This document shows positions 6,531-30,835 of a DNA stretch of 32,000 nt, piece after piece. The DNA lies in assembly GCA_964373795.1 (NCBI GenBank), contig CAYJVY010000004.1:1-32000 (forward strand). Reading direction: 5' to 3'. The DNA is from an uncultured archaeon (GTDB taxonomy: Archaea; Iainarchaeota; Iainarchaeia; Iainarchaeales; DATDZZ01). The position numbers and the translations under genes were made by a program. Under the pieces are notes generated by a model. The model ran no database searches. It saw only the letters and a program-made list of their open reading frames with translations, and was not told the origin of the DNA. How positions within the stretch are numbered: position 1 is the first letter of the stretch; the number at the start of each line of letters is the position of its first letter.

Positions 6531-7772
6531 ATGGCTGTTAAGACAGGAAATGTATTAGTTTTATGCATTGACAGAGACAATGATTTGGGTAGAAAAGCCA
6601 AGGTTCAAGGCCCAATAATTGGAATAGAAGCAAATATTGATGCAGTAATAAAGTTAGGAATAGCTGATCCAACTGATTCAGATACTAATGCAATTCTTGC
6701 TGCTTTAAAAAAATTTAATGAAGCAAAAAAGTTGTATAAAAACGTTGAAATAGCTACTTTAACTGGCAAGGAAAATGTTAAAGTTTTTGCAACTGAGGCA
6801 GACAAAATTTTAAGCGAACAACTTGATAAGGTTTTGGAAAGGTTTCCAGCTGACTCATTTATTTTTGTTTCAGATGGAGCAGAAGATGATGCAGTTCTTC
6901 CAATTATTACTTCTAGAATTAAGAAAATTAATTCAAAAGAAATAGTCATAGTTAAACAAGCAAAGCAAGTTGAATCAACTTTTTACACAATTAAAGAAGT
7001 ATTAAAAGATCCTTTAGTTGCAAAAATTGTTTTCGGCATTCCTGGAATAATTTTGTTAATAATTCTTGCTTTAGGGTCAATTGGAACTCAAGTAGTTTTA
7101 GGAGCACTAGGAATTTTTTTGCTTTTATATGGATTTGGATTACTTGAATGGAGTGTGAAAACATTTAATGACTTGGTTACCCCTATTTCAACTCAAAGAG
7201 TTAGCTTTGTTTTCTACATTGGAGCATTTTTAATATTCTTTTTTGGAATTTTTTCAGCAATAATTACTTTTAATCAAAAAGCTGGACAAGAAGAATTAAT
7301 TAGAGGAATTGAATCAGTTTTTCAAATGCTTTTGTTTATGATGATTTCAAATATTTCAATAAATATTGCTAAATCCATTGACGGCGTTTATTTGAAAAAA
7401 GCCTTTAAATTAGGGTATTTTTTTAGATCAGCTTTTGCAGGAATATTAATTTACGTTATACTTGATTCAGGAAAACAAGTTTTCTTAGCAAATGCTGACT
7501 TAAACTTATTTGTTTTAACTTTAATTGGATCAGCAATAACTTTTGTAATTGCCGATCAAGTTGCAAAAGTAATTGATGTAAGAGGAAAAATAACTAAATT
7601 ATTAATTGGCTTGCCTGTTTATTCAAGTGAGGGAAACTGGATTGGAAAAGTTAATTCAATTAATAGTGAAAAAGAATTAATTGAAATCAAGGAAATTAAG
7701 TCAAAAAAATTATTAAAGTTAAAGAAAAACCAGTTTTTATTCAAAGAAGGAAGCCTTTTTTTAACTGTTTAA
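6531..7772 (+). CDS. DUF373 family membrane protein
   Basis: N-terminal VLVLCIDRDNDLGRKAKVQGPIIG...LGIADPTDSDTNAI is the signature I associate with archaeal DUF373. It is followed by about 6 TM helices and a small C-terminal soluble domain. Confidence 0.68.
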   Translation: MAVKTGNVLVLCIDRDNDLGRKAKVQGPIIGIEANIDAVIKLGIADPTDSDTNAILAALKKFNEAKKLYKNVEIATLTGKENVKVFATEADKILSEQLDKVLERFPADSFIFVSDGAEDDAVLPIITSRIKKINSKEIVIVKQAKQVESTFYTIKEVLKDPLVAKIVFGIPGIILLIILALGSIGTQVVLGALGIFLLLYGFGLLEWSVKTFNDLVTPISTQRVSFVFYIGAFLIFFFGIFSAIITFNQKAGQEELIRGIESVFQMLLFMMISNISINIAKSIDGVYLKKAFKLGYFFRSAFAGILIYVILDSGKQVFLANADLNLFVLTLIGSAITFVIADQVAKVIDVRGKITKLLIGLPVYSSEGNWIGKVNSINSEKELIEIKEIKSKKLLKLKKNQFLFKEGSLFLTV

Positions 7773-10700
7773 TGAATTACTTTTTTTCCAACTTTTTTTA
7801 ATGCAGTAGACAAGTTAAGGTTAACGAATTTTTTTAACTGCTTCAATAAACGTTGTTTAGTGGAAGATTTTACAAAAGCGTTTTCCAAAACTTCATTCAA
7901 TGTTGTTACTGGAATAATTTTAATTTTTTTACTCATTTCAGGAGTTAAAACAATGTCTTCAAAATTTGATTTAGGAATAATTACTTCTTTAAAGCCTGCA
8001 ACAATTGCCGCGCTTACTTTAGCTGTAACTCCTCCTACAGGTAAAACTTCTCCTCTAACTGACAAGCTTCCAGTCATTGCCAAGCCTTGTTTAATTGGAA
8101 TTCTTTCCAAAGCAGAGATTACAGCTGTTGCAACTGAAACACTTGCAGAATCTCCTTCAACTCCTTCATAGGTTTGCAAAAACTGTATATGCAAGTCATG
8201 CTTTGAAATATCTTTTCCAGAAATTTTTTTAATTAAAGCTGAAACATTTTGAACAGCTTCTTTAGCTATTTCTCCAAGCTTTCCAGTAGCAATTAATTTT
8301 CCTTCAGCAGTACTAGAAGCAGGCGCTATTTCTGCTTCAATAGGCAATACTAATCCAGCATCCCCTGCTCCTGAAACAGCTAAACCATTAACTCTTCCAA
8401 CTGCTTGTCCTTCCCTTAAATAAACATCGTAATCTTTTTTTTGCTCAATTATTTTTGAAACCATTTGCTGTTCAAGAGTTCGAGCAGACATTTTTGCTTC
8501 AAACACGTCTTGCTCTAAAACAAGTGCATGCCCTTTTTCTTTAGCAATATCTCCTGCAGCTCTAATCAAGCCTCCTAAGTCTCTTAACTTTAAAGTTAAC
8601 TTGAATTTTCTTTGAGCTCTTTTTCTTGCCTCAAAAATAATTGCTTCAACTGCTTCTCTAGCAAAATGAGGAATTTTTCCATCCTTTGAAACCTCTTGAG
8701 CAACAAATTGCACTACTTTATTTCTATTCTCTTTATTATCAGGCATATCTAAATTCATGTAAATTTCATATCCATATCCCCTAATTCTTGAACGCAAAGC
8801 AGGATGAACATGTTTTAAGTCTTCATAGTTTCCAGCTGCAACTAAAACAAAGTCACATGGAACTGGATCAGTTCTAGTCATTGCTCCAGAAGACATTTCG
8901 CTTTGCCCAGTAATTGAATACTTTTTTTCTTGCATTGCAGTAAGCAATTCTTGTTGAGCTTTTTGAGGCAAAGTAGCAATTTCATCAATAAATAAAACTC
9001 CTCCATTAACTCTGTGAATTAATCCAGGCTCTACTCTTAAATGAGGCGGAGTTCCTAAACCTCCTGAATTTGCTGCTAAAATGTTATTAGCAATTAAGTT
9101 TCCTGATTCAGTTGTTATGTTGTAAATAATTTCATCAACCATTAGTTCATTATCTGAAAAACTAAATTCTTTTTTTTCAAGCATTTGCATTAAAGAAGAT
9201 GAAACCCTTAAAGTTGAGTTAATGGAGAAATTAGTTTTCCCTTTTTCAAGCAAGTTATTATAGTTTATTTTTTTCCACTCACTCATTTCTTTTAACGCAT
9301 TATTTAGTCTTTCAATTTTTTTATTTGAATAACTTAAAGGAATAAATTTTATAAATCGTGCAAGATTTTCTAGTTCTTTAGAAATGCATAACTTCCAAAT
9401 AAATCTTGAAGGCCTAAACTCATTTTCATAAATGTTGTTTGTTTTGATGCCATAAGAATTTAAATATCTTTTAACTTGAGACAAAAACTGGATTCTATTT
9501 TCTTTTAATTCTTTTGATCCAGCTAAGGCAACATCAAAAGTATTAAAATATTTGTGTTTTTGTGAAAACTTTGGAGAACATAATTCGTTTCCAAGAAATG
9601 CTCCAAAAAATTCTTGCAAAGATTTTTCATTCAAATAAATCCATGAAGGAATAATTAATTCCTTGTTTTTTCTGCCAAGCGGGGCTCCTAAAGCCAAAAA
9701 AAATCTAATTAATGTTCGATTAGTGCAAATTACATTTGCAGCTGTTTCATTAATACCGCTCTTCATTTCCCTTAAATTACTTTTAATTTCTTCACCAAAT
9801 AATTCAATTAAATCTTGTTTGTAATCTGAAAGTGATTCCCTTTCAGCTGAAGACAAAAAAATTCCATTCAAATTAGAAAAAACTCCTCCATCTCCAAAAG
9901 TCGTGCCAAGAATTCTAGCAACTAAATAAACTTTTGAGTGAGAAGTTGTTAAAGGCAATAAATTTTTCTTATTTAATAACTCAATTACTTTAACTGGATC
10001 GGGCTTTGAATTGGTTAAATGCCACCACCTAACCCTTCCCTTAGGAATCTCCAATTTTTTAGCCAATTTTTTATATCCAAAAAAAGGATTCTCCTTTTTG
10101 AGTTTTAAATACTCATAATAAGAGTGAGTTGACTCCTGGTCTTTTTTAGAAAAAGTTTGAATTATATCTTCTTCATCCAAAATTATTTCATCATGTAAAA
10201 AAAGTTTTGAATCAGGAAATATTTTTTCTGCTTCAACCCATTCAGTATTGGAAAAAATCTTATGTTCAGGAGTTAAAATTAATCTGTTACTATTTTTTCG
10301 AATAGAGATCATTTTTCCTGTATAAGGACGTCTATTAACAATGAAAAGTTTAACTGGTTGAATTACTCCCTCTTTAAATCCAAGAATTTTAATATCTTCT
10401 GTATCTGGAAGAATTAAACCTTCATATCCTTTTTCATTTATTTCAACTAAATTAGGGTATTTGAAAATTAAATTATCCACTAATTTTTTGATCAACATAG
10501 GTTGAACTTTATTTTTTTCATTAACCAAATAAACTGCTGTATCAGGAAAAAAAGTCTGAAGCGGATCATGCCTTACATCACCAAGTAATGATCCAGCTCT
10601 TGAACCAGTGCCATCAGCAAAAGGAGCTATTTTTTTTCCTGCATTATCAATTAAAAGTTTTGGTGTTTGCCTTGTTTCTCTTGGCTTTATTTGCGAACCT

Positions 10701-11176
10701 AAAGCTACTCCAATAATTAAAAATCCTCCTAATAGTAAAGTAGCTGCATAAATTACGTCTGAAATCCATTTCAAGCTCCACATAACGTAATTCAAAATAA
10801 ACCATGCAAAAGGCAAAAGCAATCCAATTAATCTAGCATTATCTTCAGCTGCCTTTGAATCCAACCTCATTCTGTGAATAATTTTTTTTCCTTCGCCTGC
10901 ACTCACTACTTTAACTCTTGGATTATTTGAATCAGTTGAATTAGGGTAAATTAAAATGTCATTCAATTTATTGAATGGCAGGATTTCAGCCATTGCTTGA
11001 GCTAACATTGATTTTCCAGTTCCAGGCAATCCAACTAATAAAACATTTCTTTTCTGAACAGCTGCTTTTCTAATTAATTCAACTGCAATGTCTTGTCCAA
11101 TGATTTGTTCAATTAATCCTTTTGGAACAGGAATTTCTTGAGTGCTCTTAAAATCTTTTGAAATCTCTACAACCAT
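7769..11176 (-). CDS. lonB: Archaeal membrane-bound Lon protease (LonB), interrupted by an intein
   Basis: - Walker A is GLPGTGKS.
- Two TM helices are inserted in the AAA+ module.
- GDVRHDPLQ and SGGLGTPPHLRVEPG...VLFIDEI are contiguous in other LonB proteins but separated here by 496 aa.
- The C-terminal protease domain has GDSASV.
- The extein total is 639 aa. Confidence 0.9.
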   Translation of the reverse strand: MVVEISKDFKSTQEIPVPKGLIEQIIGQDIAVELIRKAAVQKRNVLLVGLPGTGKSMLAQAMAEILPFNKLNDILIYPNSTDSNNPRVKVVSAGEGKKIIHRMRLDSKAAEDNARLIGLLLPFAWFILNYVMWSLKWISDVIYAATLLLGGFLIIGVALGSQIKPRETRQTPKLLIDNAGKKIAPFADGTGSRAGSLLGDVRHDPLQTFFPDTAVYLVNEKNKVQPMLIKKLVDNLIFKYPNLVEINEKGYEGLILPDTEDIKILGFKEGVIQPVKLFIVNRRPYTGKMISIRKNSNRLILTPEHKIFSNTEWVEAEKIFPDSKLFLHDEIILDEEDIIQTFSKKDQESTHSYYEYLKLKKENPFFGYKKLAKKLEIPKGRVRWWHLTNSKPDPVKVIELLNKKNLLPLTTSHSKVYLVARILGTTFGDGGVFSNLNGIFLSSAERESLSDYKQDLIELFGEEIKSNLREMKSGINETAANVICTNRTLIRFFLALGAPLGRKNKELIIPSWIYLNEKSLQEFFGAFLGNELCSPKFSQKHKYFNTFDVALAGSKELKENRIQFLSQVKRYLNSYGIKTNNIYENEFRPSRFIWKLCISKELENLARFIKFIPLSYSNKKIERLNNALKEMSEWKKINYNNLLEKGKTNFSINSTLRVSSSLMQMLEKKEFSFSDNELMVDEIIYNITTESGNLIANNILAANSGGLGTPPHLRVEPGLIHRVNGGVLFIDEIATLPQKAQQELLTAMQEKKYSITGQSEMSSGAMTRTDPVPCDFVLVAAGNYEDLKHVHPALRSRIRGYGYEIYMNLDMPDNKENRNKVVQFVAQEVSKDGKIPHFAREAVEAIIFEARKRAQRKFKLTLKLRDLGGLIRAAGDIAKEKGHALVLEQDVFEAKMSARTLEQQMVSKIIEQKKDYDVYLREGQAVGRVNGLAVSGAGDAGLVLPIEAEIAPASSTAEGKLIATGKLGEIAKEAVQNVSALIKKISGKDISKHDLHIQFLQTYEGVEGDSASVSVATAVISALERIPIKQGLAMTGSLSVRGEVLPVGGVTAKVSAAIVAGFKEVIIPKSNFEDIVLTPEMSKKIKIIPVTTLNEVLENAFVKSSTKQRLLKQLKKFVNLNLSTALKKVGKKVIH
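9068..10555 (-). mobile_element. Intein with LAGLIDADG-type homing endonuclease inside lonB (residues 208-703)
   Basis: Block A-like TFFPDTAVYL, block B LILTPEHKIF (TxxH), two LAGLIDADG-like motifs (LVARILGTTFGDGGV and FFGAFLGNELCS), and C-terminal GNLIANNILAAN followed by Ser +1. Boundaries were checked at the codon level: ACT at 10553-10555 and AAT at 9068-9070. Confidence 0.8.
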
Positions 11177-20547: not shown

Positions 20548-20820
20548 CTATTTGTAAATTCTGTCGTGATGATCAAAATTATAAAACTTTATTTTATCTT
20601 CAGATTTTAAGTACATGAACGTCAAAACAAATGGACCGTTAACATGAACTCTCTTCAGGTGTTGAAGAGGATTTCTCAGATTCTTGTAATGCTCGACATC
20701 TTCACATCCAAGGATTTCATTAATTTTTTTCATAATAGCTTCATAAGTAACCTTGTCTTTCTTTGCAAGCTTGCTTAAAATCTTTTGAAGACCTGGTTCA
20801 ACAGAAAAATTACGACTCAA
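20548..20820 (-). CDS. RelE/YafQ-like type II toxin
   Basis: 90 aa. KLAKKDK...I.KKI.EI...HYKNL...L..LKRVHV...FVLTF...KIKFYNFDHHDRIY fits the RelE/ParE-superfamily pattern. Overlaps the upstream antitoxin ORF by 11 nt. Confidence 0.62.
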   Translation of the reverse strand: MSRNFSVEPGLQKILSKLAKKDKVTYEAIMKKINEILGCEDVEHYKNLRNPLQHLKRVHVNGPFVLTFMYLKSEDKIKFYNFDHHDRIYK

Positions 20821-21052
20821 TAGCTCGCCTCAAATCAGACAACTTCTTGTATTCAATAAATTTTCCACGCTTTTCAATTTTCTGAATTTTTTTCACAAAT
20901 TCAGGCCTAAGTTCGGGTTCCAAAAAATTTTCCTCATATTTTTTAACAATCCAATCAATTACCTGTGACTTATCCTTTAACCCAAACTTGGCTTTAACAA
21001 TATTCAAAACCCTATTAGTATTTTCATCAATATTTATCATAGCCTGTACCAT
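20810..21052 (-). CDS. Cognate antitoxin (small DNA-binding protein, DUF2683-like)
   Basis: 80 aa. INIDENTNRVLNIVKAKFGLKDKSQVIDWIVKKY resembles the archaeal antitoxin family found upstream of RelE-like genes. Operonic overlap with the toxin. Confidence 0.58.
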   Translation of the reverse strand: MVQAMINIDENTNRVLNIVKAKFGLKDKSQVIDWIVKKYEENFLEPELRPEFVKKIQKIEKRGKFIEYKKLSDLRRAIES

Positions 21053-21661: not shown

Positions 21662-22075
21662 ATGGTTTTTCCAAGCATTGAAGTACTTGTAATAAATTTA
21701 CTATTAGCTGTATTACTTTGAGGAATAATCGGATTTGAAAGAGAGAAAAGCGGTGTGCCAGCCGGGTTAAGAACACATATATTAATTTGCTTGGGTTCAA
21801 CTCTTTTCACTTTGATTTCTGTTAGTTTTTCTGAAGGAGATCCAACAAGAATTGCTTCAGGAATTGTTACAGGAATTGGTTTTCTTGGAGCAGGAGCAAT
21901 CTTTAAATCAAAAAACCACGTAATAGGATTAACTACTGCAGCAGATATTTGGGTTGTATCAGCAATCGGATTAGCAATTGGATTAAATTTTTATTCAGCA
22001 GCAGCAATTACAACATTAATTGCTTTCATAATTTTATTTTTAGGACGCATACTCAAAAAAGAAGTTAACAATTAA
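21662..22075 (+). pseudogene. MgtC/SapB family membrane protein interrupted by an in-frame TGA at 21719-21721
   Basis: MVFPSIEVLVINLLLAVLL*GIIGFEREKSGVPAGLRTHILICLGS... matches the MgtC N-terminus (A.LLGG.IG.ERE....AGLRTH.L). The stop replaces the first conserved Gly. The ORF-track entry 21755..22075 is the in-frame tail. Confidence 0.75.
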
Positions 22076-23537
22076 TTTTTTTCACAATTCCTTTTTCTGC
22101 GTCAACCTCAATTAAATCATTGTCTTTGAAAACCTTGGTTGCATATTTTGTTCCAACCACGCAAGGAATTTTTAATTCTCGTGAAACAATTGCTGCATGG
22201 CAAAGCAAGCCTCCATCGTTTGTAACAATTGCAGAACAGTTCTCCATTGCAGGAACAAATGAAGGCTGAGTTCCAGGAGCAATCAATACATCTCCTTTTT
22301 CCACTTTTGAAATATCTTTTTCTGTCAATACAATTTTTGCCTTTCCTCTGATTTTTCCTGAAAAAGCACAAACTCCTTGAACTCTGTCTAAATTAGAGTA
22401 ATCCATAATCAAGTGTTTATTTTTTTCATAAAACTCCTGCAACTCTCTCCCTTCAATTATTGATGTTTTTCCTTTCTCCAGCAAAAAATAGCAGTCTTTT
22501 ACTCTGTCATTCAATTTCTCAACCAAGCCCTTTGGAACAGAGTTTTTTTCCAGAATTCCAAACAATTCTTGAAGACGAAGCTCAATCACTTGATTATATG
22601 AAAGCCCATATTCTTTGCAGAATAACAGCAAATAAGGGTGCAACTTGTAAGAGGAAAAATGATACCATGAATCTTCAGTAAAAGAAACATAAGCCCATTT
22701 TCTTGCAACTTTTATCTTCAAAAGAGTTTTTTTATCAAACCCATACTTGGCTAGTAATTTTTTTCTTTTTTCCCAAATTCTTTCCTGTTCTAAAATTTTT
22801 TGCAATTCTTTTTCCACGCCTTTTTCAAGAACTTTTTCAATTCGAGGTTTTACGTCTTGCTCTGTATAAGCTCCTCCATAATAAGTGCAAAAACCCATGA
22901 ATGCAAATTTTTCTAAATAATTTTTAATCATTTTCTGGATTTGAGGAGAACTAAATGAAAGCTTTTTGCGCTTCATGTTCAAAGCAATTAAAGCAATTGC
23001 TTTTGCCTCATTTTTTATGTCAGTTGGCTCGTGCAAGGAAAAAACAGTTTCCAAAAACGAATTCAATTCTTTTACATTAGGAATTTTCTGCACAAAAACA
23101 GAATTTAATTCCTCCAAATAAAACTTGTCTAAAATCATGTAATCATAAGTCATTGAACCAATGTCCTTGTATAATTCGAAATACTTTTTGAATTTTTTTA
23201 AAAACAATTTCCTGTCAAACTTTTTTGGTTTTGGCAACAATTTAACCAAAGTTTTTGTATGCTTTTGAATCATTTTTTCCAAACGCTCTGCATAAAACAA
23301 AAGCCTTTCATCAGATTCTTTAAAGAATTCAACAATTGCGTTATATTCTTTTCTTGAAATTCCTCTTTCACTCATGAACTGTCTATAATTTGTCACAGGA
23401 ATATTTCTGCCATGATTTTTTGCAAAAAATCCTTCCCTGAAACACTCGGCTAAAGAGTCAACTAACAAAATCGGAAGCTTTCGCTTTCCAGAAAGCAAAA
23501 TCCATTTTTCATCCCAAGACAAATTCATTTCAATCAC
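22065..23537 (-). CDS. PEP-utilizer swivel (phosphohistidine) domain protein with an unrecognised ~380-aa helical N-terminal region (copy 1)
   Basis: C-terminal G.AKIV...GDVLIAPGTQPSFVPAM...AIVTNDGGLLCHAAIVSRELKIPCVVGT is the PEP-utilizers mobile-domain signature, including the catalytic His. I see no ATP-grasp (PPDK_N) or PEP-binding TIM-barrel motifs. Paralog of 28615..30078. Confidence 0.75.
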   Translation of the reverse strand: MIEMNLSWDEKWILLSGKRKLPILLVDSLAECFREGFFAKNHGRNIPVTNYRQFMSERGISRKEYNAIVEFFKESDERLLFYAERLEKMIQKHTKTLVKLLPKPKKFDRKLFLKKFKKYFELYKDIGSMTYDYMILDKFYLEELNSVFVQKIPNVKELNSFLETVFSLHEPTDIKNEAKAIALIALNMKRKKLSFSSPQIQKMIKNYLEKFAFMGFCTYYGGAYTEQDVKPRIEKVLEKGVEKELQKILEQERIWEKRKKLLAKYGFDKKTLLKIKVARKWAYVSFTEDSWYHFSSYKLHPYLLLFCKEYGLSYNQVIELRLQELFGILEKNSVPKGLVEKLNDRVKDCYFLLEKGKTSIIEGRELQEFYEKNKHLIMDYSNLDRVQGVCAFSGKIRGKAKIVLTEKDISKVEKGDVLIAPGTQPSFVPAMENCSAIVTNDGGLLCHAAIVSRELKIPCVVGTKYATKVFKDNDLIEVDAEKGIVKKINC

Positions 23538-23678
23538 TAAAAAAATGTTTTACTAGAATAAATAACTTGGTTTTGAACTGCATTAAAAGCTTTAAGCCGG
23601 TATATAATGCCTTATGCAAGCCTGTTTAGAAAAACACAAGCTTTAAATTTCTTTAATTTATTTTTTTATTACATTTAA

Positions 23679-25043
23679 ATGAATTCAACTGAATTAAAAA
23701 AAAAAGCTTTAGCTTATCATGGCGGAAGATTTAAAGGCAAATTAAAAGTAATGCCTTTGAAAAGCATTTCAAACCAAGAAGAATATGCTTTAGCTTACAC
23801 TCCAGGAGTAGCTTTTCCTTGCCTTGAAATAAAAGAAAACCCTGAAGAAGTTTACAGGTATACTTCTAAAGGAAATTTAATGGCAGTTGTATCAAACGGT
23901 TCTTCAGTTTTGGGTTTGGGAAGCATTGGCCCTGAAGCAGGTTTACCTGTAATGGAAGGAAAAGCAGTTTTATTGAAAAAATTTGCAGGAATTGATGCAA
24001 TTGGTTTATGTATTTCTAAAACACTTGATTCAAAAAGAAAAACTTTAGTAAAAGAATTTGTTTCATGCGTGGAAAAACTCGAACCAAGTTTTGGAGCAAT
24101 TAATTTAGAAGACATTGCTGCTCCTGAATGCTTTCAAGTTGAACAAGAACTGCGAAAGAAAATGAATATCCCTGTAATGCATGACGATCAACATGGAACT
24201 GCAATTGTAACAGGAGCAGCTTTACTGAATTCAATCAAACTTGCAGAAAAAAAGTTGTCAGAAATAAAATTGGTTTTTTCTGGAGCAGGAGCAGCAGCAA
24301 TTGCTTCAGCAAAATTCTTTGAAATGCTTGGAGTGAAAAAAGAAAATATTTTAATGTGTGATTCTAAAGGAGTTGTTTCCACTACGCGAAAAGATTTAGA
24401 TGAATTCAAACAAGAATTTGCCTCCAATACAAATGCTAAGACTTTATCTGATGCTTTGAAAGGCACAGATGTTTTTTTCGGTCTTTCAAAGCCAGGAATT
24501 GTTTCAAAGGAAATGATTAAGTCAATGGCTGAAAAAGCAATTGTTTTTGCAATGGCAAACCCAGTGCCTGAAATCCTTCCAGAAGAAGCCTTAGAAGGAG
24601 GGGCATTTATTGTAGGCACTGGACGTTCAGATAGAGCAAATCAAATTAATAACTCCCTTGGGTTTCCTGGAATTTACAGAGGAGCTTTAGATGTCCGCGC
24701 TAAAGAAATTAATGAAGAAATGAAACTAGCTGCTTCACATGCTTTAGCTAATTTATTGCAAGAAAAAATTCCTAAAGACGTCAAAGAATTTTTGAATAAA
24801 GCTTATCCTAGAGCAAAAGAAAAAGAATTGTTTGAAAAAGAAATTCCTTTATCTCCTGGCTTGATTCTTCCACGAATTTTAGATCCAAGAATTGTTCCAC
24901 GCATTGCACGAGAAGTAGCAAAGGCAGCAATGCTTTCAGGCGTTGCACGAGAAAAAATCCTTGATTTAGAAAAATACGAAAAAGAAACAACACAATTCAT
25001 TGAATTCACTAATGAAAACATTCAAGTCTGTTTAAAAATTTAA
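23679..25043 (+). CDS. NAD(P)-dependent malic enzyme (oxaloacetate-decarboxylating malate dehydrogenase)
   Basis: YTPGVA, HDDQHGTAIV, the Rossmann motif FSGAGAAAIA, and FAMANPVPEI are typical of short prokaryotic malic enzymes. Confidence 0.9.
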   Translation: MNSTELKKKALAYHGGRFKGKLKVMPLKSISNQEEYALAYTPGVAFPCLEIKENPEEVYRYTSKGNLMAVVSNGSSVLGLGSIGPEAGLPVMEGKAVLLKKFAGIDAIGLCISKTLDSKRKTLVKEFVSCVEKLEPSFGAINLEDIAAPECFQVEQELRKKMNIPVMHDDQHGTAIVTGAALLNSIKLAEKKLSEIKLVFSGAGAAAIASAKFFEMLGVKKENILMCDSKGVVSTTRKDLDEFKQEFASNTNAKTLSDALKGTDVFFGLSKPGIVSKEMIKSMAEKAIVFAMANPVPEILPEEALEGGAFIVGTGRSDRANQINNSLGFPGIYRGALDVRAKEINEEMKLAASHALANLLQEKIPKDVKEFLNKAYPRAKEKELFEKEIPLSPGLILPRILDPRIVPRIAREVAKAAMLSGVAREKILDLEKYEKETTQFIEFTNENIQVCLKI

Positions 25044-25110
25044 AATAACTAACCCCTCCAACTAAAGTCCAAAGTATCCAGAGTTCATTTTTAAGAAATA
25101 AATTAACATT

Positions 25111-25312
25111 CGCCGAGCAGCCGGCGAGGCTGAAGCACTGTTCAGCCGGCAAAGCTGAAGTGACCAGCCCGCGAGGCTGAGTGCCCACGTGGGCATCGCG
25201 CTTGCCGCGCGAGACTACAGCTGAAGGGTCACGTGACCCCTCGCACTCGACGGGCGTGACGTCGCAGCCGACAAAGCTGAGTCAGCAGTTGACAAAACTG
25301 GAACCTGGTGCC
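25111..25312. other. GC-rich island made of about 10 consecutive mini-hairpins / degenerate direct repeats (candidate structured RNA or protein-binding array)
   Basis: - By hand count, 131 of 202 nt are G/C, between two convergent AT-rich genes.
- The repeated unit CAGCC-N5-GGCTGA(A)G, or the variant CAGC-N7-GCTGA(A)G, starts at 25118, 25143, 25165 and 25265. A degenerate copy starts at 25283.
- Two perfect 14-bp palindromes are present: TGCCCACGTGGGCA (25182-25195) and GGGTCACGTGACCC (25226-25239).
- Two further hairpins are present: TCGCGC-ttgcc-GCGCGA (25196-25212) and CGACG-ggcgtga-CGTCG (25248-25264). Confidence 0.6.
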
Positions 25313-25334
25313 TAAAACTTCATAACAACTATTG

Positions 25335-25994
25335 TTAAGGTAACAAGTTTTCTAATACAAAAGGAATTATTTTTTGCTCAGCTTTACGCAGGTTTTCTGT
25401 AAAAGTTGAAGCACTTAAACCTTTTCTTTTTGCTAATTCTTTAATGTTGGCTTTTTTTGGAAACTCGTAATACCCTTGTTCAAACGCGTATCGAATTAGC
25501 TCTTTCTGTTTCTCAGGCAAAGAAGGAACTGCATGTGGAATGAAGAAATCCTTTAAAGGTTCTTGAATAATTGACTCTACTTCAAAATGAACAAATTTCT
25601 CCATTTTTTTCAGCATTTTTGTAAGGCTTTCTTTTTTCCATGCACCGAAAGTAACTGTTTGAAAGCCTTGAGGAAAAACTGTTAAGGGTTTGACAAACAT
25701 TATTTCAGGGCTAATAAATAACTGTAAATGACTTTTAGCTGAACTCTTATGAGTGTAAACATAAAAGTCTCCATAGCTTTCAAAATTAGTAATGCTTGGA
25801 TTTTTTTTCACTGCAGCAAAATAGGCTTTTTTGTTTTCTTCAGAACCAATAACGTAATGCACAAAATCAAAGAAAATAAATTTGCCTTTCTTGAAGTGAT
25901 TAATTGGAAAACTTGTAAAAACGATGTTGAATTTTTTTGCATACTCTAAAGCATAAGAATTTTCATGCCAGTATTTGAGTTTTAAAATCCACAT
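25335..25994 (-). CDS. HTH_10 (bacterio-opsin-activator-type) transcription regulator (copy 1)
   Basis: The C-terminal LPEKQKELIRYAFEQGYYEFPKKANIKELAKRKGLSASTFTENLRKAEQKIIPFVL matches the HTH_10 pattern. I trimmed the start from 26372 to the Met at 25994, where MWILKLKYWHE aligns with the paralog start MWVLKAKIFHE. Confidence 0.7.
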   Translation of the reverse strand: MWILKLKYWHENSYALEYAKKFNIVFTSFPINHFKKGKFIFFDFVHYVIGSEENKKAYFAAVKKNPSITNFESYGDFYVYTHKSSAKSHLQLFISPEIMFVKPLTVFPQGFQTVTFGAWKKESLTKMLKKMEKFVHFEVESIIQEPLKDFFIPHAVPSLPEKQKELIRYAFEQGYYEFPKKANIKELAKRKGLSASTFTENLRKAEQKIIPFVLENLLP

Positions 25995-26050
25995 GAAATC
26001 AATAAAGAAAAAGAAATATTTAAAGCTAGCCTTCCATTCATTTACTTGAA

Positions 26051-26076
26051 AACATTTAAATATTTGTTTAAATGTT
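26051..26076. promoter_or_regulatory. 10-bp perfect inverted repeat in the divergent HTH_10 / zinc-ribbon promoter region
   Basis: AACATTTAAA-tatttg-TTTAAATGTT lies about 30 nt upstream of the ATG at 26107 and about 57 nt upstream of the HTH_10 start. Confidence 0.3.
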
Positions 26077-26106
26077 AATATATTGTTTTTATTCTCGGGG
26101 AGAAAA

Positions 26107-26406
26107 ATGAATTTAAAATACTGTCCTAATTGTGGAAAAATAGGGGACTTTGTTTCAGTTAAAGGAATACAAAGATGCGAGTCATGCAAAGTAGTTGGAA
26201 AACCATTAGAAGGAACAATTGATGAAATTAATGCTTTTGCAAAAAAAATAAAAGCAGGAAAACCAATTTCAAGAAATAATTCAGCAATTGATTCAATTTC
26301 AAGCCAAGCAATTACTTCAAAAACAAGTACTTCAAATCCTTCTTCAAATAATGAATGGAAAGAAAAATTCAAGTCATTAAAAGGAAAAATAATTGGTGCG
26401 GACTAG
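26107..26406 (+). CDS. Small zinc-ribbon protein with a Ser/Thr/Asn-rich tail
   Basis: MNLKYCPNCGK...(12)...CESC forms a four-Cys ribbon, and GGGGAG lies upstream of the ATG. It occupies the region that the ORF track assigns to an implausible N-terminal extension of the opposite-strand gene. Confidence 0.5.
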   Translation: MNLKYCPNCGKIGDFVSVKGIQRCESCKVVGKPLEGTIDEINAFAKKIKAGKPISRNNSAIDSISSQAITSKTSTSNPSSNNEWKEKFKSLKGKIIGAD

Positions 26407-27848
26407 AAAAGCTTTGTTTGACTTGGTTCTTTAGATGAATCTTCAAGTTTTTCTTTTTCATTTTCTAATTCAATTCTTTTTTCTTCAAGTTCTTTGAATT
26501 CATCTAATTGTTCAAAGGATTCAAAGGAATGAAGTTTAACTGGTTTAATGAATTTTTTCTTTAACTCTTGAGCTTCAAACAAAATTTTTTCAATTGATTT
26601 TGAATCAGGTTTTGCATTCAATAAAAAACTTAATTCTTTTTCATCAAAATCAAATTGAGTAGTTAATTCAACTGCATTTTTTTTGTTTTGCATTAAAGTT
26701 TTAATGAATTCTAAATCGTTTTTAATTACTTCTTTTGAAGAAGAATGAATTTTTTCTCCAATCTTTAAGGCAATTGCTTTCTTAGTGTTTCTTAAAGCAG
26801 TTGAAGAAGAAAGTTTTTTCAGAAAAGAAGGAAATTGAAGTTGAAGCCATCCATGGTATTCGTTTTCTTTGGCTAAAGCAACTCCTGAAGACATTAATTC
26901 AGATGAATACCTCAAAAAACCCCAATGCTGTCTACGCATTATTCTTCCATCAAATACATCTGCTCTGCTTAAAACCTCAAAAGCTTTTCTTGAATCCTCT
27001 CCCTTTAAATAAATTCTTGGAATATTTTCTTCAACCCATTTTTTTAATAAATCATTGTCAATGTCAATAAAGGCTTTAGATTTTCTAATTTCTTGCAAGT
27101 CTTGTTTTTTAAAGATTTTTTCAACTACCTGAAAAACATCTGTTTCTCTTTCTCTGAAAAAATTTAATTCCAAGTCTTGTAAAACAATTTTATTGTTTAC
27201 AATTGAAAGGTTTTGCAAGTCAAGTAATGCAGCTCTTAAATCTCCATTAGAGTCTTCTGCAAGTTTTTTTAATACTTCTTGATCAAAATCAATTCCTTGT
27301 TTTTCGCAAATCTCTTTCAAACGTTTTGCAATGCTTGGAAAAGAAATTTTGGAGAACTTTAATTCCTCGCAGGAAAATTTAATTGAATCAAGTTTTCTGT
27401 CTGGAAAAAAAATTTTGTTTGCAGTTAAAATAATTGGTTGCTGAGAATCCTTCAATATTTGAGTAATTGCTTGCAAGCCTCCTCTATCTTCACGTTTTTG
27501 AATTCCGTCAACTTCATCTAATAAAATTAATCTTTTCCCAGAAAAAAAAGAAGCATTTAATGAAGCGCCTCCAACAACTTTATCAATAATGTCTTTATTG
27601 CGGAAATCAGATGCATTTAATTCAAATAACTGCCAATTAAATTCTTTTGCCACAAGAAAAGCTAAAGCTGTTTTACCAATTCCAGGAGAGCCATGCAGCA
27701 ATAAAGGCTTTCCTTTAATTCCTTCACTCCAATTTTGAGCCCATTTTTTAACAAACCCAACAATTTTTGAATTTCCAACAAATTCTTTAAAGCTTTGAGG
27801 AGCAAATTTTTCAGTAAAAAGATCAGTCATTAAAAAATTAACTGACAA
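26403..27848 (-). CDS. rfcL: Replication factor C large subunit
   Basis: FTEKFAPQSFKEFVGN, Walker A HGSPGIGKT, Walker B LILLDEVDG, sensor TANK-like region, and an acidic/Lys-rich C-terminal tail typical of archaeal RfcL. The start may instead be the Met at 27830. Confidence 0.85.
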   Translation of the reverse strand: MSVNFLMTDLFTEKFAPQSFKEFVGNSKIVGFVKKWAQNWSEGIKGKPLLLHGSPGIGKTALAFLVAKEFNWQLFELNASDFRNKDIIDKVVGGASLNASFFSGKRLILLDEVDGIQKREDRGGLQAITQILKDSQQPIILTANKIFFPDRKLDSIKFSCEELKFSKISFPSIAKRLKEICEKQGIDFDQEVLKKLAEDSNGDLRAALLDLQNLSIVNNKIVLQDLELNFFRERETDVFQVVEKIFKKQDLQEIRKSKAFIDIDNDLLKKWVEENIPRIYLKGEDSRKAFEVLSRADVFDGRIMRRQHWGFLRYSSELMSSGVALAKENEYHGWLQLQFPSFLKKLSSSTALRNTKKAIALKIGEKIHSSSKEVIKNDLEFIKTLMQNKKNAVELTTQFDFDEKELSFLLNAKPDSKSIEKILFEAQELKKKFIKPVKLHSFESFEQLDEFKELEEKRIELENEKEKLEDSSKEPSQTKLF

Positions 27849-27906
27849 AGAAAATAAGAATTTTCCGCAAAGAAAAGATTAAATATTTCAAATAAACTAG
27901 TCTATC

Positions 27907-28581
27907 ATGTGGGTTTTAAAAGCAAAAATTTTTCATGAAGACTCTTTTGGAATAAAATACTGCAAAAAATACAAACTTACAATGCATGGATATCCTTTAT
28001 CAATTACTCCGCAAGGCAAGGAAGTAATTGTTTCAGTATGGCATTTCATTCAAGGCGAGAAAAAAAATATTAAAAAATATTATGCTGAATTAAAAAACGA
28101 AAAAAAATTATTTGATATTGAAATAAATGGCAACATATTGATTTACTCGTTTTCGGTTTCCAAAAACAACTCACATTGGAGAGCATATGCTAATCCAGCT
28201 GTCGTATTCTTAAAACCTGCAATCATAAATTCAAAAGGAGATGAATTCATAGAAATAGGGGCATGGAAAAAAGAAGTTTTAACAAAATTTATAGAAAGCG
28301 CTTCAAAGAAAATGGAAATAAATGTTTCAAGCCTGAAAAAGGAAAAAGCTCCAGATATATTTATTCCTTTTTCAATGCCAAAACTATCAAGCAAGCAAAG
28401 GATTTGCCTGGATTTGGCATACGAAAATGGTTATTATTTATATCCAAGAAAAATAACTTTGGAAGAACTTGCCAAAAAAGCAAAAATTTCTTATACCACT
28501 TTCCAAGAACATCTAAGAAAAGCAGAAACAAAAATAATTCCTTTTTTCCTGGAACAAACCAAAGCCGACAAACATCGGTGA
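27907..28581 (+). CDS. HTH_10 (Bat-type) transcription regulator (copy 2)
   Basis: The C-terminal LSSKQRICLDLAYENGYYLYPRKITLEELAKKAKISYTTFQEHLRKAETKIIPFFL matches the HTH_10 pattern. It is followed 33 nt later by the co-oriented swivel-domain gene. TGA stop. Confidence 0.75.
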   Translation: MWVLKAKIFHEDSFGIKYCKKYKLTMHGYPLSITPQGKEVIVSVWHFIQGEKKNIKKYYAELKNEKKLFDIEINGNILIYSFSVSKNNSHWRAYANPAVVFLKPAIINSKGDEFIEIGAWKKEVLTKFIESASKKMEINVSSLKKEKAPDIFIPFSMPKLSSKQRICLDLAYENGYYLYPRKITLEELAKKAKISYTTFQEHLRKAETKIIPFFLEQTKADKHR

Positions 28582-28614
28582 AACGACTTTTAACATAGAA
28601 ACTGGAAATTATTT

Positions 28615-30078
28615 ATGACAAAAAATAACTGGATTGTTTTAGCATCAGGAAAAGGCCATATTCCATTTTTTGCATATAGTGCATTCATGCATGCCATTGG
28701 AAAACCAATAAAAGAGTTTCCTGGAATAAAAAACATTTCAAAATATAGGAGAGTTCTAAACATTTCTTTTGTTGAAGAAAAAGATTTTCAAGCTCTTTGG
28801 AAATCTCTTGAAAAAGCAGAAAAAGAAAAACCAGGACTTCTGTTAAAAATCGGCAAGGTGTGGGAAAAAAAGTTAGTGGATTTGAAAAAATTTGTTGATA
28901 ATAATTCTGGAAAAAAATTCAAGGAAATGAACAACAAACAACTTTTGGCGTTTTTTAAAGAATTTTTTTCTGTCTGTGAAAAAGCACTGGAATTCGAATT
29001 GTTTTACTATGGAGCTAATGCATTTCTGCCTGAAAAATTATTCAAAGAATTGAATGAAATAATTGAAAACAAAAGTAAGATGAACGATGCCTTACTGGAG
29101 CTGACAGAAATTGATAAAGAGATTTCAGCAACAAAGGAAAGGAAAAAACTAATTGAATTGACTAGGTTTGTAAAAAAACACGGAAAAAATTTCGAAAACC
29201 CTGAAGTGAAAAAAAGAATTGAAAAACACTTGAAAGAGTTTGCATTTCTTGGATATTATTGGTGTGGCAGAAAACCATACAATTCAGAGAATATTAAGGA
29301 AAGAATTACAGAATACTTGGAAAAGGATTTAGAAAAAGAAATTCAAATCTGCGGAAAATGGAAAAAGGTTAAAACTAAAGTCAAAAGAATTTCGAAAAAA
29401 TATTCTTTGCCAAAAAGTATTCTTTTGAAAGCAGAAGCTGTAAGACATTATTCATATGTTTCTACTTTGGCGAATGAAATTTTTGGAAGCTATATGAGAT
29501 TTGGAATGCAAAAATTATTTGAAGAAATTGCAAAACGACTGTATATTTCTGTAGACCAAATTTTGGAGGCAAACAAGGAAGAAATAGTTGATGCTCTAGA
29601 GAAAGGAAAAATTTCAAAAGAATTGCAAAAAGAATTACAGGAACGGACTAAAGATTATTATTTTGAGTTCTATGACAAGAAAATTTTATTTTTTGACAGA
29701 AAAGAAATTGAAAAAGTGAATAAAGAAATGCAGCAAGAGAGCACTGAATTAAAAAAATTAAAACAAGTGCAAGGCTTAAGTGCAAAAAAAGGAATTGTAA
29801 AAGGAAAAGCAAGAGTAATTCTTTCACCACAAGAATTACATTCTGTGAAAAGAGATGAAATACTTGTTTCAATAAACACTACTCCTGTATTTGTCCCTGC
29901 AATGGAAAAAGTTAAAGCAATAGTAACAGATGAAGGAGGATTATTATCTCATGCAGCAATTGTTTCACGAGAACTAGGAAAGCCATGCATTGTTGGAACA
30001 AAGATTGCAACAAAGGTTTTCACTAACGGAGAATTAATTGAAGTGAATGCCACAAAAGGAATAGTTAAAAGGCTTTGA
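28615..30078 (+). CDS. PEP-utilizer swivel (phosphohistidine) domain protein with an unrecognised helical N-terminal region (copy 2)
   Basis: C-terminal GKARVILSP...DEILVSINTTPVFVPAM...AIVTDEGGLLSHAAIVSRELGKPCIVGT. The internal HLKEFAFLGYYW segment aligns with YLEKFAFMGFCT of copy 1. TGA stop falls at the same relative C-terminus as the paralog. Confidence 0.75.
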   Translation: MTKNNWIVLASGKGHIPFFAYSAFMHAIGKPIKEFPGIKNISKYRRVLNISFVEEKDFQALWKSLEKAEKEKPGLLLKIGKVWEKKLVDLKKFVDNNSGKKFKEMNNKQLLAFFKEFFSVCEKALEFELFYYGANAFLPEKLFKELNEIIENKSKMNDALLELTEIDKEISATKERKKLIELTRFVKKHGKNFENPEVKKRIEKHLKEFAFLGYYWCGRKPYNSENIKERITEYLEKDLEKEIQICGKWKKVKTKVKRISKKYSLPKSILLKAEAVRHYSYVSTLANEIFGSYMRFGMQKLFEEIAKRLYISVDQILEANKEEIVDALEKGKISKELQKELQERTKDYYFEFYDKKILFFDRKEIEKVNKEMQQESTELKKLKQVQGLSAKKGIVKGKARVILSPQELHSVKRDEILVSINTTPVFVPAMEKVKAIVTDEGGLLSHAAIVSRELGKPCIVGTKIATKVFTNGELIEVNATKGIVKRL

Positions 30079-30136: not shown

Positions 30137-30555
30137 ATGGTGAAAAGATTTTATTTGGATACAAGTATTTGGAGAGACTATTTTGAAGACAGAGTTGACA
30201 AGTTTAGGCCACTTGGTTTGTTTGCTTTTCAATTTTTGAATGAATGCAGGAATAAAGGCCACAAGGTTTTGTATTCTGATTTGATTTTGTTTGAGTTACG
30301 AAAAGAATATTCAGAAGAAAGAATTAAGTCAATCCTTTCAGAGTTTCACAATATTCTAGAAAGAGTTGAATCTACAGACAAGCAAAAGTAGAGTCAAAGT
30401 TATTAGAAAATAAGTTAGAAGAAGCACATAATCCAGATATATTGCATGCAATTATTTCTAGAGACAACAAGGCAGTAATTATTACAAGAGACAAAGGCTT
30501 CGAAGAATTAAAACAAGTTGTCGAAGTTAAGAAACCAGAAGAAGTCACTTTTTAG
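30137..30555 (+). pseudogene. PIN-domain (VapC-like) toxin gene with a -1 frame break near 30389
   Basis: Frame 1 gives MVKRFYLDTSIW...FELRKEY...STDKQK then stop (30389-30391). The next frame continues from 30391 as ESKLLENKLEEAHNPDILHAIISRDNKAVIITRDKGF..., supplying the third and fourth acidic PIN residues. This is consistent with a 1-nt deletion. Confidence 0.65.
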
Positions 30556-30835
30556 ATTTTTCTTCCAATTCCCTAAAAAACTCTTCACTATATTTTCGCC
30601 TGTTTTCCAGCCATTCTTCATCTGTTTTGGATTTACTCATGCCTTTCAAAGCGCCTCTAGCTGTAAAAAGTGCTTGCCAAGCCTTTTCTTTTCTGCGCTC
30701 GACTTCAAGTTCTTTGAGTTTGCCTCTGATTGCATCTCTAATGAATTCAGTTTTCGTGCTGTATCTAAATTCATGCAAGACTTTTTCAATCTCTTTAGCA
30801 AGAGAAGATTCAAGTTTAATGCTAATGCTTTCCAT
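30545..30835 (-). CDS. Ribbon-helix-helix (CopG-like) protein
   Basis: The N-terminal ISIKLESSLAKEIEKVLHEFRYSTKTEFIRDAIRGKL is an RHH pattern. It is convergent with the broken PIN gene and overlaps it by 11 nt, so the two are not a classical co-oriented pair. Confidence 0.58.
   Translation of the reverse strand: MESISIKLESSLAKEIEKVLHEFRYSTKTEFIRDAIRGKLKELEVERRKEKAWQALFTARGALKGMSKSKTDEEWLENRRKYSEEFFRELEEKSKK

Follow-up and report, generated by a model that had tools for sequence, protein, structure and literature searches.

Two paralogous genes in a 32,000-nucleotide stretch of DNA from an uncultured archaeon (contig CAYJVY010000004.1 of assembly GCA_964373795.1, positions 1 to 32,000; here called the window) code for proteins, SwvA and SwvB, in which a helical domain that modeling and profile comparisons relate to the rifampin-binding domain of rifampin phosphotransferase (RPH) precedes a C-terminal swivel domain that bears a catalytic histidine. 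Each lies near a gene for a regulator with an HTH_10 domain, here called H1 (near SwvB) and H2 (near SwvA). The interpretation that we favor, with somewhat better than even confidence, is that SwvA and SwvB are subunits of split RPH-type dikinases that bind the substrate and carry the phosphohistidine; an ATP-grasp protein whose gene lies elsewhere would charge them in trans, and a dedicated HTH_10 regulator would control the transcription of each. If this is correct, these genes are not broken phosphoenolpyruvate (PEP) synthases but make up half of a modular kinase system, one strongly amplified in the smallest known cells.

SwvA is the 490-aa product of an open reading frame (ORF) on the minus strand (22065..23537), which begins at a GTG codon and has an ATG three codons in as an alternative start, and SwvB is the 487-aa product of an ORF on the plus strand (28615..30078). 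The two align from end to end with 30% identity (E 4e-64). Pfam recovers a single domain in both, the PEP-utilizers mobile (swivel) domain PF00391, matched with E ~1e-23 at the extreme C terminus: residues 413-483 of SwvA (22089..22301, minus strand; E 3.6e-24) and residues 412-482 of SwvB (29848..30060, plus strand; E 4.6e-23). Neither protein has a match to PPDK_N or PEP-utilizers_C. The catalytic histidine lies in a TxxGGLL(C/S)H motif, TNDGGLLCH in SwvA and TDEGGLLSH in SwvB, and translation confirms it as H447 of SwvA (codon at nt 22197..22199, minus strand) and H446 of SwvB (nt 29950..29952, plus strand). A reading of the window from its letters alone (the sequence-only reading) had described two paralogs of about 490 aa that end in such a swivel domain and lack both the ATP-grasp module and the TIM barrel of PEP synthases, and the Pfam and alignment results agree with it on each of these points. 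The preceding ~380 residues are covered by no model in Pfam or NCBIfam, both of which were scanned, although alignments to the RPH-like NCBIfam models PRK06241 reach into the helical region (e.g., SwvB residues 239-485).

A model of SwvB made with AlphaFold 2 from the single sequence attained a mean local confidence (pLDDT) of only 37; when it was built with an alignment of 105 family members (see below), the pLDDT rose to 95.1 with a predicted template modeling score (pTM) of 0.92. The latter model displays an RPH-type substrate-binding domain at approximately residues 1-380, followed by the C-terminal swivel. In a Foldseek search of the PDB initiated with it, the six best matches were all RPH of Listeria (RPH-Lm; E 3e-15 to 9e-12), led by 5FBU, 5FBT, and 5HV1 (E 3e-15 to 5e-14), with query template modeling scores of up to 0.62 over ~560-590 alignment columns, and all matches other than RPH were confined to the swivel domain. 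Independently, positions 113-486 of the family profile align to residues 464-866 of RPH (E 2e-35), while the same profile matches PEP synthases in the swivel domain only. The convergence of the structural matches with this separate profile alignment indicates that the N-terminal helical region is homologous to the rifampin-binding domain of RPH, and the earlier suggestion of an RPH layout minus its ATP-grasp module is thus upheld by both approaches.

Comparison with RPH-Lm (5FBS, 5FBT, 5FBU, and 5HV1), the best match by both structure and profile across the helical and swivel domains, shows further points of likeness: the swivel is C-terminal in both, and the conserved E323 and R344 of the family align with E710 and R728 of RPH. 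However, RPH has 867 aa, as opposed to 487-490 aa for SwvA and SwvB, which have no counterpart of its ATP-grasp domain (residues 1-314). Moreover, they score 66 bits against the RPH model NF041857, which has a cut-off of 999, and nothing points to rifamycins as their substrate. Their resemblance to PEP synthase and pyruvate phosphate dikinase (PPDK) is of a different nature. The swivel is homologous there too, with the best score of the family swivel being obtained against that of an archaeal-type PEP synthase (8A8E profile, E 1e-51, ~50% local identity), but it occupies a central rather than a C-terminal position in those enzymes. Further, SwvA and SwvB lack their PPDK_N ATP-grasp and their PEP/pyruvate-binding TIM barrel, and the remaining fold differs.

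The two proteins, which had been called orphans on the basis of sequence alone, belong to a large family. A word-indexed search with the N-terminal 385 aa yielded nothing beyond SwvB and a single relative (71-75% identical). However, an exhaustive HMMER search with a profile made from the N-terminal regions of SwvA and SwvB recovered 402 representatives of clusters at 50% identity with E <= 1e-3, of which 116 had E <= 1e-10. The members are nearly all 460-520 aa long and have so far been found mainly in bacteria belonging to the candidate phyla radiation (CPR) and in DPANN archaea. In an alignment of 105 full-length short members, none of which contains an ATP-grasp domain, the swivel histidine in its T/SxxGGxxxH context is invariant, as are E323, G387, G441, G442, and P457; R344 is conserved in 98%, and W6, E175, H205, and R230 are further conserved residues. 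Mean pairwise identity is 54% in the swivel domain and 20% in the substrate-binding domain. The substrate-binding domains of SwvA and SwvB are themselves only 22% identical, so that SwvA probably has a different substrate from SwvB. Fragments of the family go by the names "PEP-utilizing enzyme," "pyruvate, water dikinase," and "PEP/pyruvate-binding domain-containing protein," names that could mislead metabolic reconstructions into gluconeogenic PEP synthesis.

We scanned loci with four locally built hidden Markov models (HMMs) for the family N-terminal domain, the swivel, the ATP-grasp, and the regulator (SwvA scores 3e-97 with the first and 1e-48 with the second). The loci came from a genome-collection scan with a swivel-domain pattern, and about two-thirds of those listed are ordinary PEP synthases, so that the counts are not a census. 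Among them, tandem arrays of 4-12 divergent paralogs arranged head to tail are common in the family and take up 6-18 kb in the small genomes of CPR and DPANN; at single loci, the family can span 15-20 kb. Examples include ~12 copies in Nealsonbacteria (L003, 2216-20269), ~10 in Falkowbacteria (L013, 290-13328), 8 in Woesearchaeota (L025, 3886-15976), and 5 in Uhrbacteria (L016), with further arrays in L022 and L042. Most of the arrays have no ATP-grasp gene inside the region covered. In other cases, the repeated modules have been joined into a single giant ORF headed by one ATP-grasp. The largest of these, from Woesearchaeota (L012, JAFGGS010000004.1, 3317-14602), is a 3761-aa ORF with one N-terminal PPDK_N domain and ~8 swivel modules; an ORF of ~1997 aa (L015, 8273-14263) combines an N-terminal PPDK_N ATP-grasp with four such modules, and those of L009 (384-4316) and L055 (7913-11611) likewise have an N-terminal PPDK_N followed by multiple substrate-binding/swivel modules. 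The literature that we searched yielded no description of a multi-acceptor dikinase polyprotein and no paper on the swivel family, its arrays, or its polyproteins, and a survey of resistance genes in CPR bacteria mentions rph-like hits without further analysis (PMC8651080).

The window itself encodes no obvious donor: an HMM built from the family-linked ATP-grasp domains found no hidden ATP-grasp in any of its frames at E <= 10, and a Pfam scan found none in its other large ORFs. A cryptic ATP-grasp, which would have undone the sequence-only reading by making these ordinary PEP synthase-like enzymes, was looked for by both routes, and both came back empty. In relatives, by contrast, the ATP-grasp is repeatedly associated with the family. 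Four proteins of 770-838 aa (P0093, P0098, P0111, and P0142) combine a PPDK_N domain with the family N-terminal domain and swivel; in L009, L012, L015, L019, and L055, at least one module is joined to an ATP-grasp; and a stand-alone ATP-grasp gene adjoins family genes in Falkowbacteria (L008) and Buchananbacteria (L022). Seven family-linked ATP-grasp domains, 52-64% identical to each other across bacteria and archaea, were used as a donor profile, which at least 7980 proteins match at E <= 1e-30. Nearly all of the best 120 of these matches (P0180-P0299) are proteins of 313-345 aa consisting of PPDK_N only, which variously bear the names "pyruvate, water dikinase" and "PEP/pyruvate-binding domain-containing protein," and the top stand-alone matches have a mean pairwise identity of 73%. 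The two stand-alone ATP-grasp genes whose surroundings we inspected (L171:4223-5233 and L172:10001-10945) have no family gene within 10 kb, and it follows that the lack of an ATP-grasp in the window is the usual case and uninformative on its own. For this family, then, it seems normal that the enzyme is split and its ATP-grasp subunit unlinked. The gradient of identity from the substrate-binding domain (20%) through the swivel (54%) to the ATP-grasp (73%) would fit a constant donor and carrier working with a fast-diverging acceptor domain, i.e., many substrates served by one ATP-grasp. The requirement for an unidentified phosphodonor, postulated earlier, can accordingly be narrowed to a candidate class, the PPDK_N ATP-grasps that are fused or adjacent to the family in relatives and abundant as stand-alone proteins.

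The arrangement also has a described counterpart, which the sequence-only reading could not name. A 2025 study of HpeHI delineated a subfamily of two-component small-molecule dikinases, comprising HpeHI, CreHI, and PpsAB, in which one subunit contains an RPH-like substrate-binding domain and the swivel and a separate ~40-kDa subunit is the ATP-grasp; mutation of the swivel histidine of HpeHI abolishes its kinase activity (PMC12167813). With these systems, namely, HpeHI of Rhodococcus, CreHI of Corynebacterium, and the phenylphosphate synthase PpsAB of Thauera and Aromatoleum, SwvA and SwvB share the C-terminal swivel with its histidine in a T/SxxGGxxxH motif and the RPH-like helical domain N terminal to it, and some of their relatives have a stand-alone ATP-grasp gene next door, as in L008 and L022. 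They differ in that the ATP-grasp gene is adjacent in the characterized systems but not next to SwvA or SwvB, and in that SwvA and SwvB have ~490 aa as opposed to the roughly 600-640 aa of HpeH, CreH, and PpsA. Unlike those enzymes of aromatic-compound degraders, their family is found in DPANN archaea and CPR bacteria, where its genes form large tandem arrays or polyproteins and, in the lineage of the window, are accompanied by an HTH_10 regulator. Thus, the fold, the motif, and the architectures of relatives suggest that SwvA and SwvB work like the larger subunit of these dikinases without being members of the same group at the sequence level. The chemistry and the split architecture have precedent; the family itself is unstudied, including its apparent limitation to date to CPR and DPANN, its arrays, its polyproteins, and the regulator clade described below.

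On the basis of the fused relatives, the full enzyme would consist of an ATP-grasp, a helical substrate-binding domain, and a swivel histidine domain. By analogy, we propose that a separate PPDK_N-type ATP-grasp, predicted to be encoded outside the window, binds ATP and phosphorylates H447 of SwvA or H446 of SwvB with release of AMP and phosphate. The charged swivel would then swing back onto its own helical domain, and the phosphate would pass to the hydroxyl of a small molecule bound there. H1 and H2, in turn, most likely each control the transcription of their own swivel gene by means of their N-terminal domains, perhaps by sensing the substrate or product of the reaction. If so, the regulator-linked pairs offer a tractable route to the substrates, with the ligand of the regulator being a candidate substrate or product. 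A bolder version, which we regard as possible but somewhat doubtful, is that CPR and DPANN share a system of one donor with many acceptors, in which a single conserved ATP-grasp charges a whole repertoire of diversified swivel subunits, organized as arrays of up to ~12 genes or as polyproteins of up to 3761 aa. Such a system might enable minimal, host-dependent cells to phosphorylate, and so trap or inactivate, many scavenged metabolites or toxins, with individual subunits having come under dedicated HTH_10 regulators in the lineage represented by the window.

Several observations weigh against the split-dikinase interpretation. First, there are those concerning the proteins themselves. SwvA and SwvB fall below the cut-off of every NCBIfam model, and with the PRK08296 models (~600 aa), which we take to represent the PpsA/CreH/HpeH-like group, only the swivel aligns, giving 74-104 bits against cut-offs of 578-730. 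They are also ~110-150 aa shorter than the 71-kDa HpeH. In RPH, the Arg666-Glu667 pair is essential for the second phosphotransfer, i.e., that to rifampin (PMC4844700). The pair, part of a network (with Lys670) by which RPH positions the phosphohistidine for transfer to its substrate, falls on family positions 283-284, in a stretch where the HMM alignment is uncertain; as so aligned, an arginine is present there in ~45% of members and in neither of the window proteins, which have S-T (SwvB, in YVSTLANE) and S-F (SwvA, in YVSFTEDS), so that the pair is not evident in SwvA or SwvB. Second, there are those concerning the donor. The window has no ATP-grasp gene, and none was detected in any of the 89 regulator loci (L082-L170). 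Furthermore, the stand-alone ATP-grasps for which the source names an organism are bacterial (Patescibacteria), and the archaeal evidence is limited to the fused forms of L012 (Woesearchaeota) and L055.

In the most serious alternative, the proteins would need no ATP-grasp partner, and the swivel histidine would act as a phosphoryl shuttle that moves phosphate between small molecules bound in the helical domain, as a transphosphorylase, or that is charged from a different source, for instance by a PEP synthase or PPDK belonging to the cell or to its host. Many of the listed loci have family genes and no ATP-grasp within ~10 kb, including most of those with long flanks (L003, L005, L007, L013, L016, L017, L018, L020, L025, and L042), and the blank record of the regulator loci points the same way, as does the fact that the family swivel scores best against the swivels of archaeal-type PEP synthases. 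There is even a biochemical precedent, in that HpeH alone catalyzes phosphotransfer from 4-phosphoacetophenone to acetovanillone (PMC12167813). Yet forms with a fused or adjacent ATP-grasp turn up repeatedly in bacteria as well as in archaea, the very large and highly conserved population of stand-alone ATP-grasps has no other obvious partner, and unlinked partners appear to be common. On balance, therefore, we consider an ATP-independent shuttle unlikely and retain the split dikinase as the preferred interpretation.

We then considered the regulators. H1 (224 aa; 27907..28581, plus strand) and H2 (219 aa; 25335..25994, minus strand) are 37% identical over 216 aa (E 5e-54), and both possess a C-terminal HTH_10 domain (PF04967) that scores well above the Pfam gathering threshold of 23.1 bits: 65.5 bits in H1 (nt 28384..28539, plus strand; E 3.7e-18) and 64.3 bits in H2 (nt 25365..25517, minus strand; E 8.8e-18). 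A longer, TTG-initiated ORF for H2, extending to 26372, was dismissed, as the homologs begin at MW.LK. In H1 the HTH_10 domain is preceded by an N-terminal domain of ~155 aa, and no relative of the regulator N-terminal domain with a solved structure was found. Regulators of the HVO_A0563 type (PF24280 plus PF04967) and of the Bat type share the C-terminal HTH_10 with H1 and H2. However, H1 and H2 lack the GAF or PAS domains of Bat and fall below the threshold of PF24280 (HVO_A0563_N), a model that does match the N-terminal region of a distant regulator, P0178.

H1 lies directly upstream of SwvB on the same strand, separated from it by 33 nt (28582..28614), a spacer too short for an obvious separate archaeal promoter, which makes cotranscription of the two likely. 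H2 is likewise upstream of SwvA and shares its strand (minus), and the gene for a malic enzyme (23679..25043, plus strand; PF00390 and PF03949) lies between them on the opposite strand. The positions and strands of the four ORFs and the 33-nt gap between the co-oriented H1 and SwvB are thus as had been reported from the sequence alone. The same reading pointed out that the malic enzyme produces pyruvate, a link seen at no related locus. No malic enzyme is encoded in any related regulator-swivel locus, for which reason we reject it as part of the module and regard its gene as probably a bystander. The region upstream of H2 contains a perfect inverted repeat of 10 nt, AACATTTAAA-N6-TTTAAATGTT as read on the minus strand, at approximately nt 26047-26072, ~50-80 nt before the start codon; the sequence upstream of H1 has no evident counterpart. 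A TTTAAATATTTC box occurs ~25-35 nt upstream of the H2 start, and a similar box, TTAAATATTTC, is found upstream of H1; the repeat may be an operator, and the boxes may be TATA elements.

The association of regulator and swivel gene extends to other genomes. A word-indexed search recovered 28 proteins of the regulator family. The 71-75%-identical relative at L001 has the same length and preserves the H1-SwvB gene order. Four regulators that are 39-42% identical to H1 share a syntenic gene order, which at three of the four loci runs from the regulator through a ~105-aa protein and a hydrolase of the haloacid dehalogenase (HAD) family to at least one swivel gene (L082 has two, as does L088, where the second is split or broken); the fourth contig breaks off within the gene that follows the ~105-aa protein. 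By contrast, no swivel gene lies close to the three regulators with 32-36% identity. Scanning of metagenomes brought in another 80 regulator loci, seven of which have downstream family genes (L092, L094, L096, L097, L098, L099, and L102); among the 47 with at least 2.5 kb of downstream sequence, the figure is four.

A neighbor-joining tree gives these scattered occurrences a clear pattern, with all swivel-linked regulators except that of L017 (Micrarchaeota) grouping with H1 and H2 in a single clade. Inside this clade, downstream family genes are present at 12 of the 13 informative loci (the exception being L093); outside it, they are present at 1 of 43, namely, L017. This difference establishes the pairing as a conserved, lineage-specific association and not a chance one. 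Outside the clade, the regulators precede unrelated genes, which by our reading of the sequences code for a radical-SAM-like protein, membrane proteins, methyltransferases, and others. Viewed from the swivel side, an HTH_10 partner is found only in L017 among the archaeal family loci listed and in none of the bacterial ones. Thus, the repeated association noticed in the window holds good within one clade and fails as a rule for the family as a whole. Two sister subclades place a homologous protein of ~105-130 aa with hydrophobic stretches, by eye likely a two-pass membrane protein, between the regulator and swivel genes, and several of their loci also have a HAD-family phosphatase of 164-183 aa in that position (loci with the small protein, with or without the phosphatase, are L082:6805-7625, L084:6793-7614, L088:6754-7632, L094-L098, and L099). 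A tblastn search showed that neither of these is encoded in the window.

The tight and persistent adjacency of the regulator clade to family genes raises a second alternative, in which the swivel protein is not a metabolite enzyme but a phosphohistidine sensor or carrier that steers the neighboring HTH_10 regulator by phosphorylation or binding, in the manner of the phosphotransferase system (PTS). The uncharacterized ~155-aa N-terminal domain of the regulators also speaks for it, and one family member, P0132 (698 aa), shows a weak match to a response-regulator receiver domain C terminal to the swivel (PF00072, E 1.6e-5, 25.5 bits against a cut-off of 30.2), which hints at a link to two-component signaling in at least one lineage. 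Against this, such a regulator is missing from the vicinity of most members, including those of all the CPR loci listed and of the majority of the archaeal loci, and divergent arrays of 4-12 copies and polyproteins are better suited to enzymes with many substrates than to one-to-one signaling. Members of the same regulator family are also found ahead of unrelated genes, much as one would expect of ordinary local transcription factors, and the sister clades interpose the small membrane protein and, at some loci, the HAD phosphatase between regulator and swivel genes. A signaling pair is, accordingly, quite improbable in our estimation, more so than the phosphoryl shuttle. Finally, the notion that SwvA and SwvB are decayed, nonfunctional remnants of PEP synthase or RPH-like genes, to which the absence of two of the three PEP synthase domains and the reduced nature of DPANN genomes might lend some color, is effectively refuted by the conservation data, given the intact, full-length ORFs, the recurrence of the 460-520-aa layout across the 402 cluster representatives, the invariance of the histidine, E323, G387, G441, G442, and P457, the confident and compact model of SwvB, and the ortholog that keeps length and gene order at 71-75% identity.

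The remainder of the window carries archaeal housekeeping genes recognizable by Pfam, including those for PCNA (at the start of the window), the large subunit of RFC, both subunits of PheRS, a putatively intein-bearing LonB, and tRNase Z; no tRNA genes are present in it. The closest relatives carry the label Candidatus Diapherotrites, a DPANN lineage. The LonB-type protease is encoded by a 1135-aa ORF (7769..11176, minus strand) in which Pfam weakly matches Intein_splicing and LAGLIDADG_3 at a point separating the Walker region from the remaining AAA domain, a placement that suggests that lonB is interrupted by an intein. When compared with the defense systems of PADLOC, neither the swivel proteins nor the regulators nor a stand-alone ATP-grasp gave a match. 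An MgtC domain is matched almost in full (E 9e-32) by a 106-aa ORF (21755..22075, plus strand), which lies on the strand opposite to SwvA and shares 11 nt with its 3' end. The module is flanked by two pairs of small ORFs, an overlapping pair of 90 and 80 aa at 20548..21052 (minus strand) and a pair of 84 and 96 aa at 30137..30835, both of which look by eye like toxin-antitoxin pairs.

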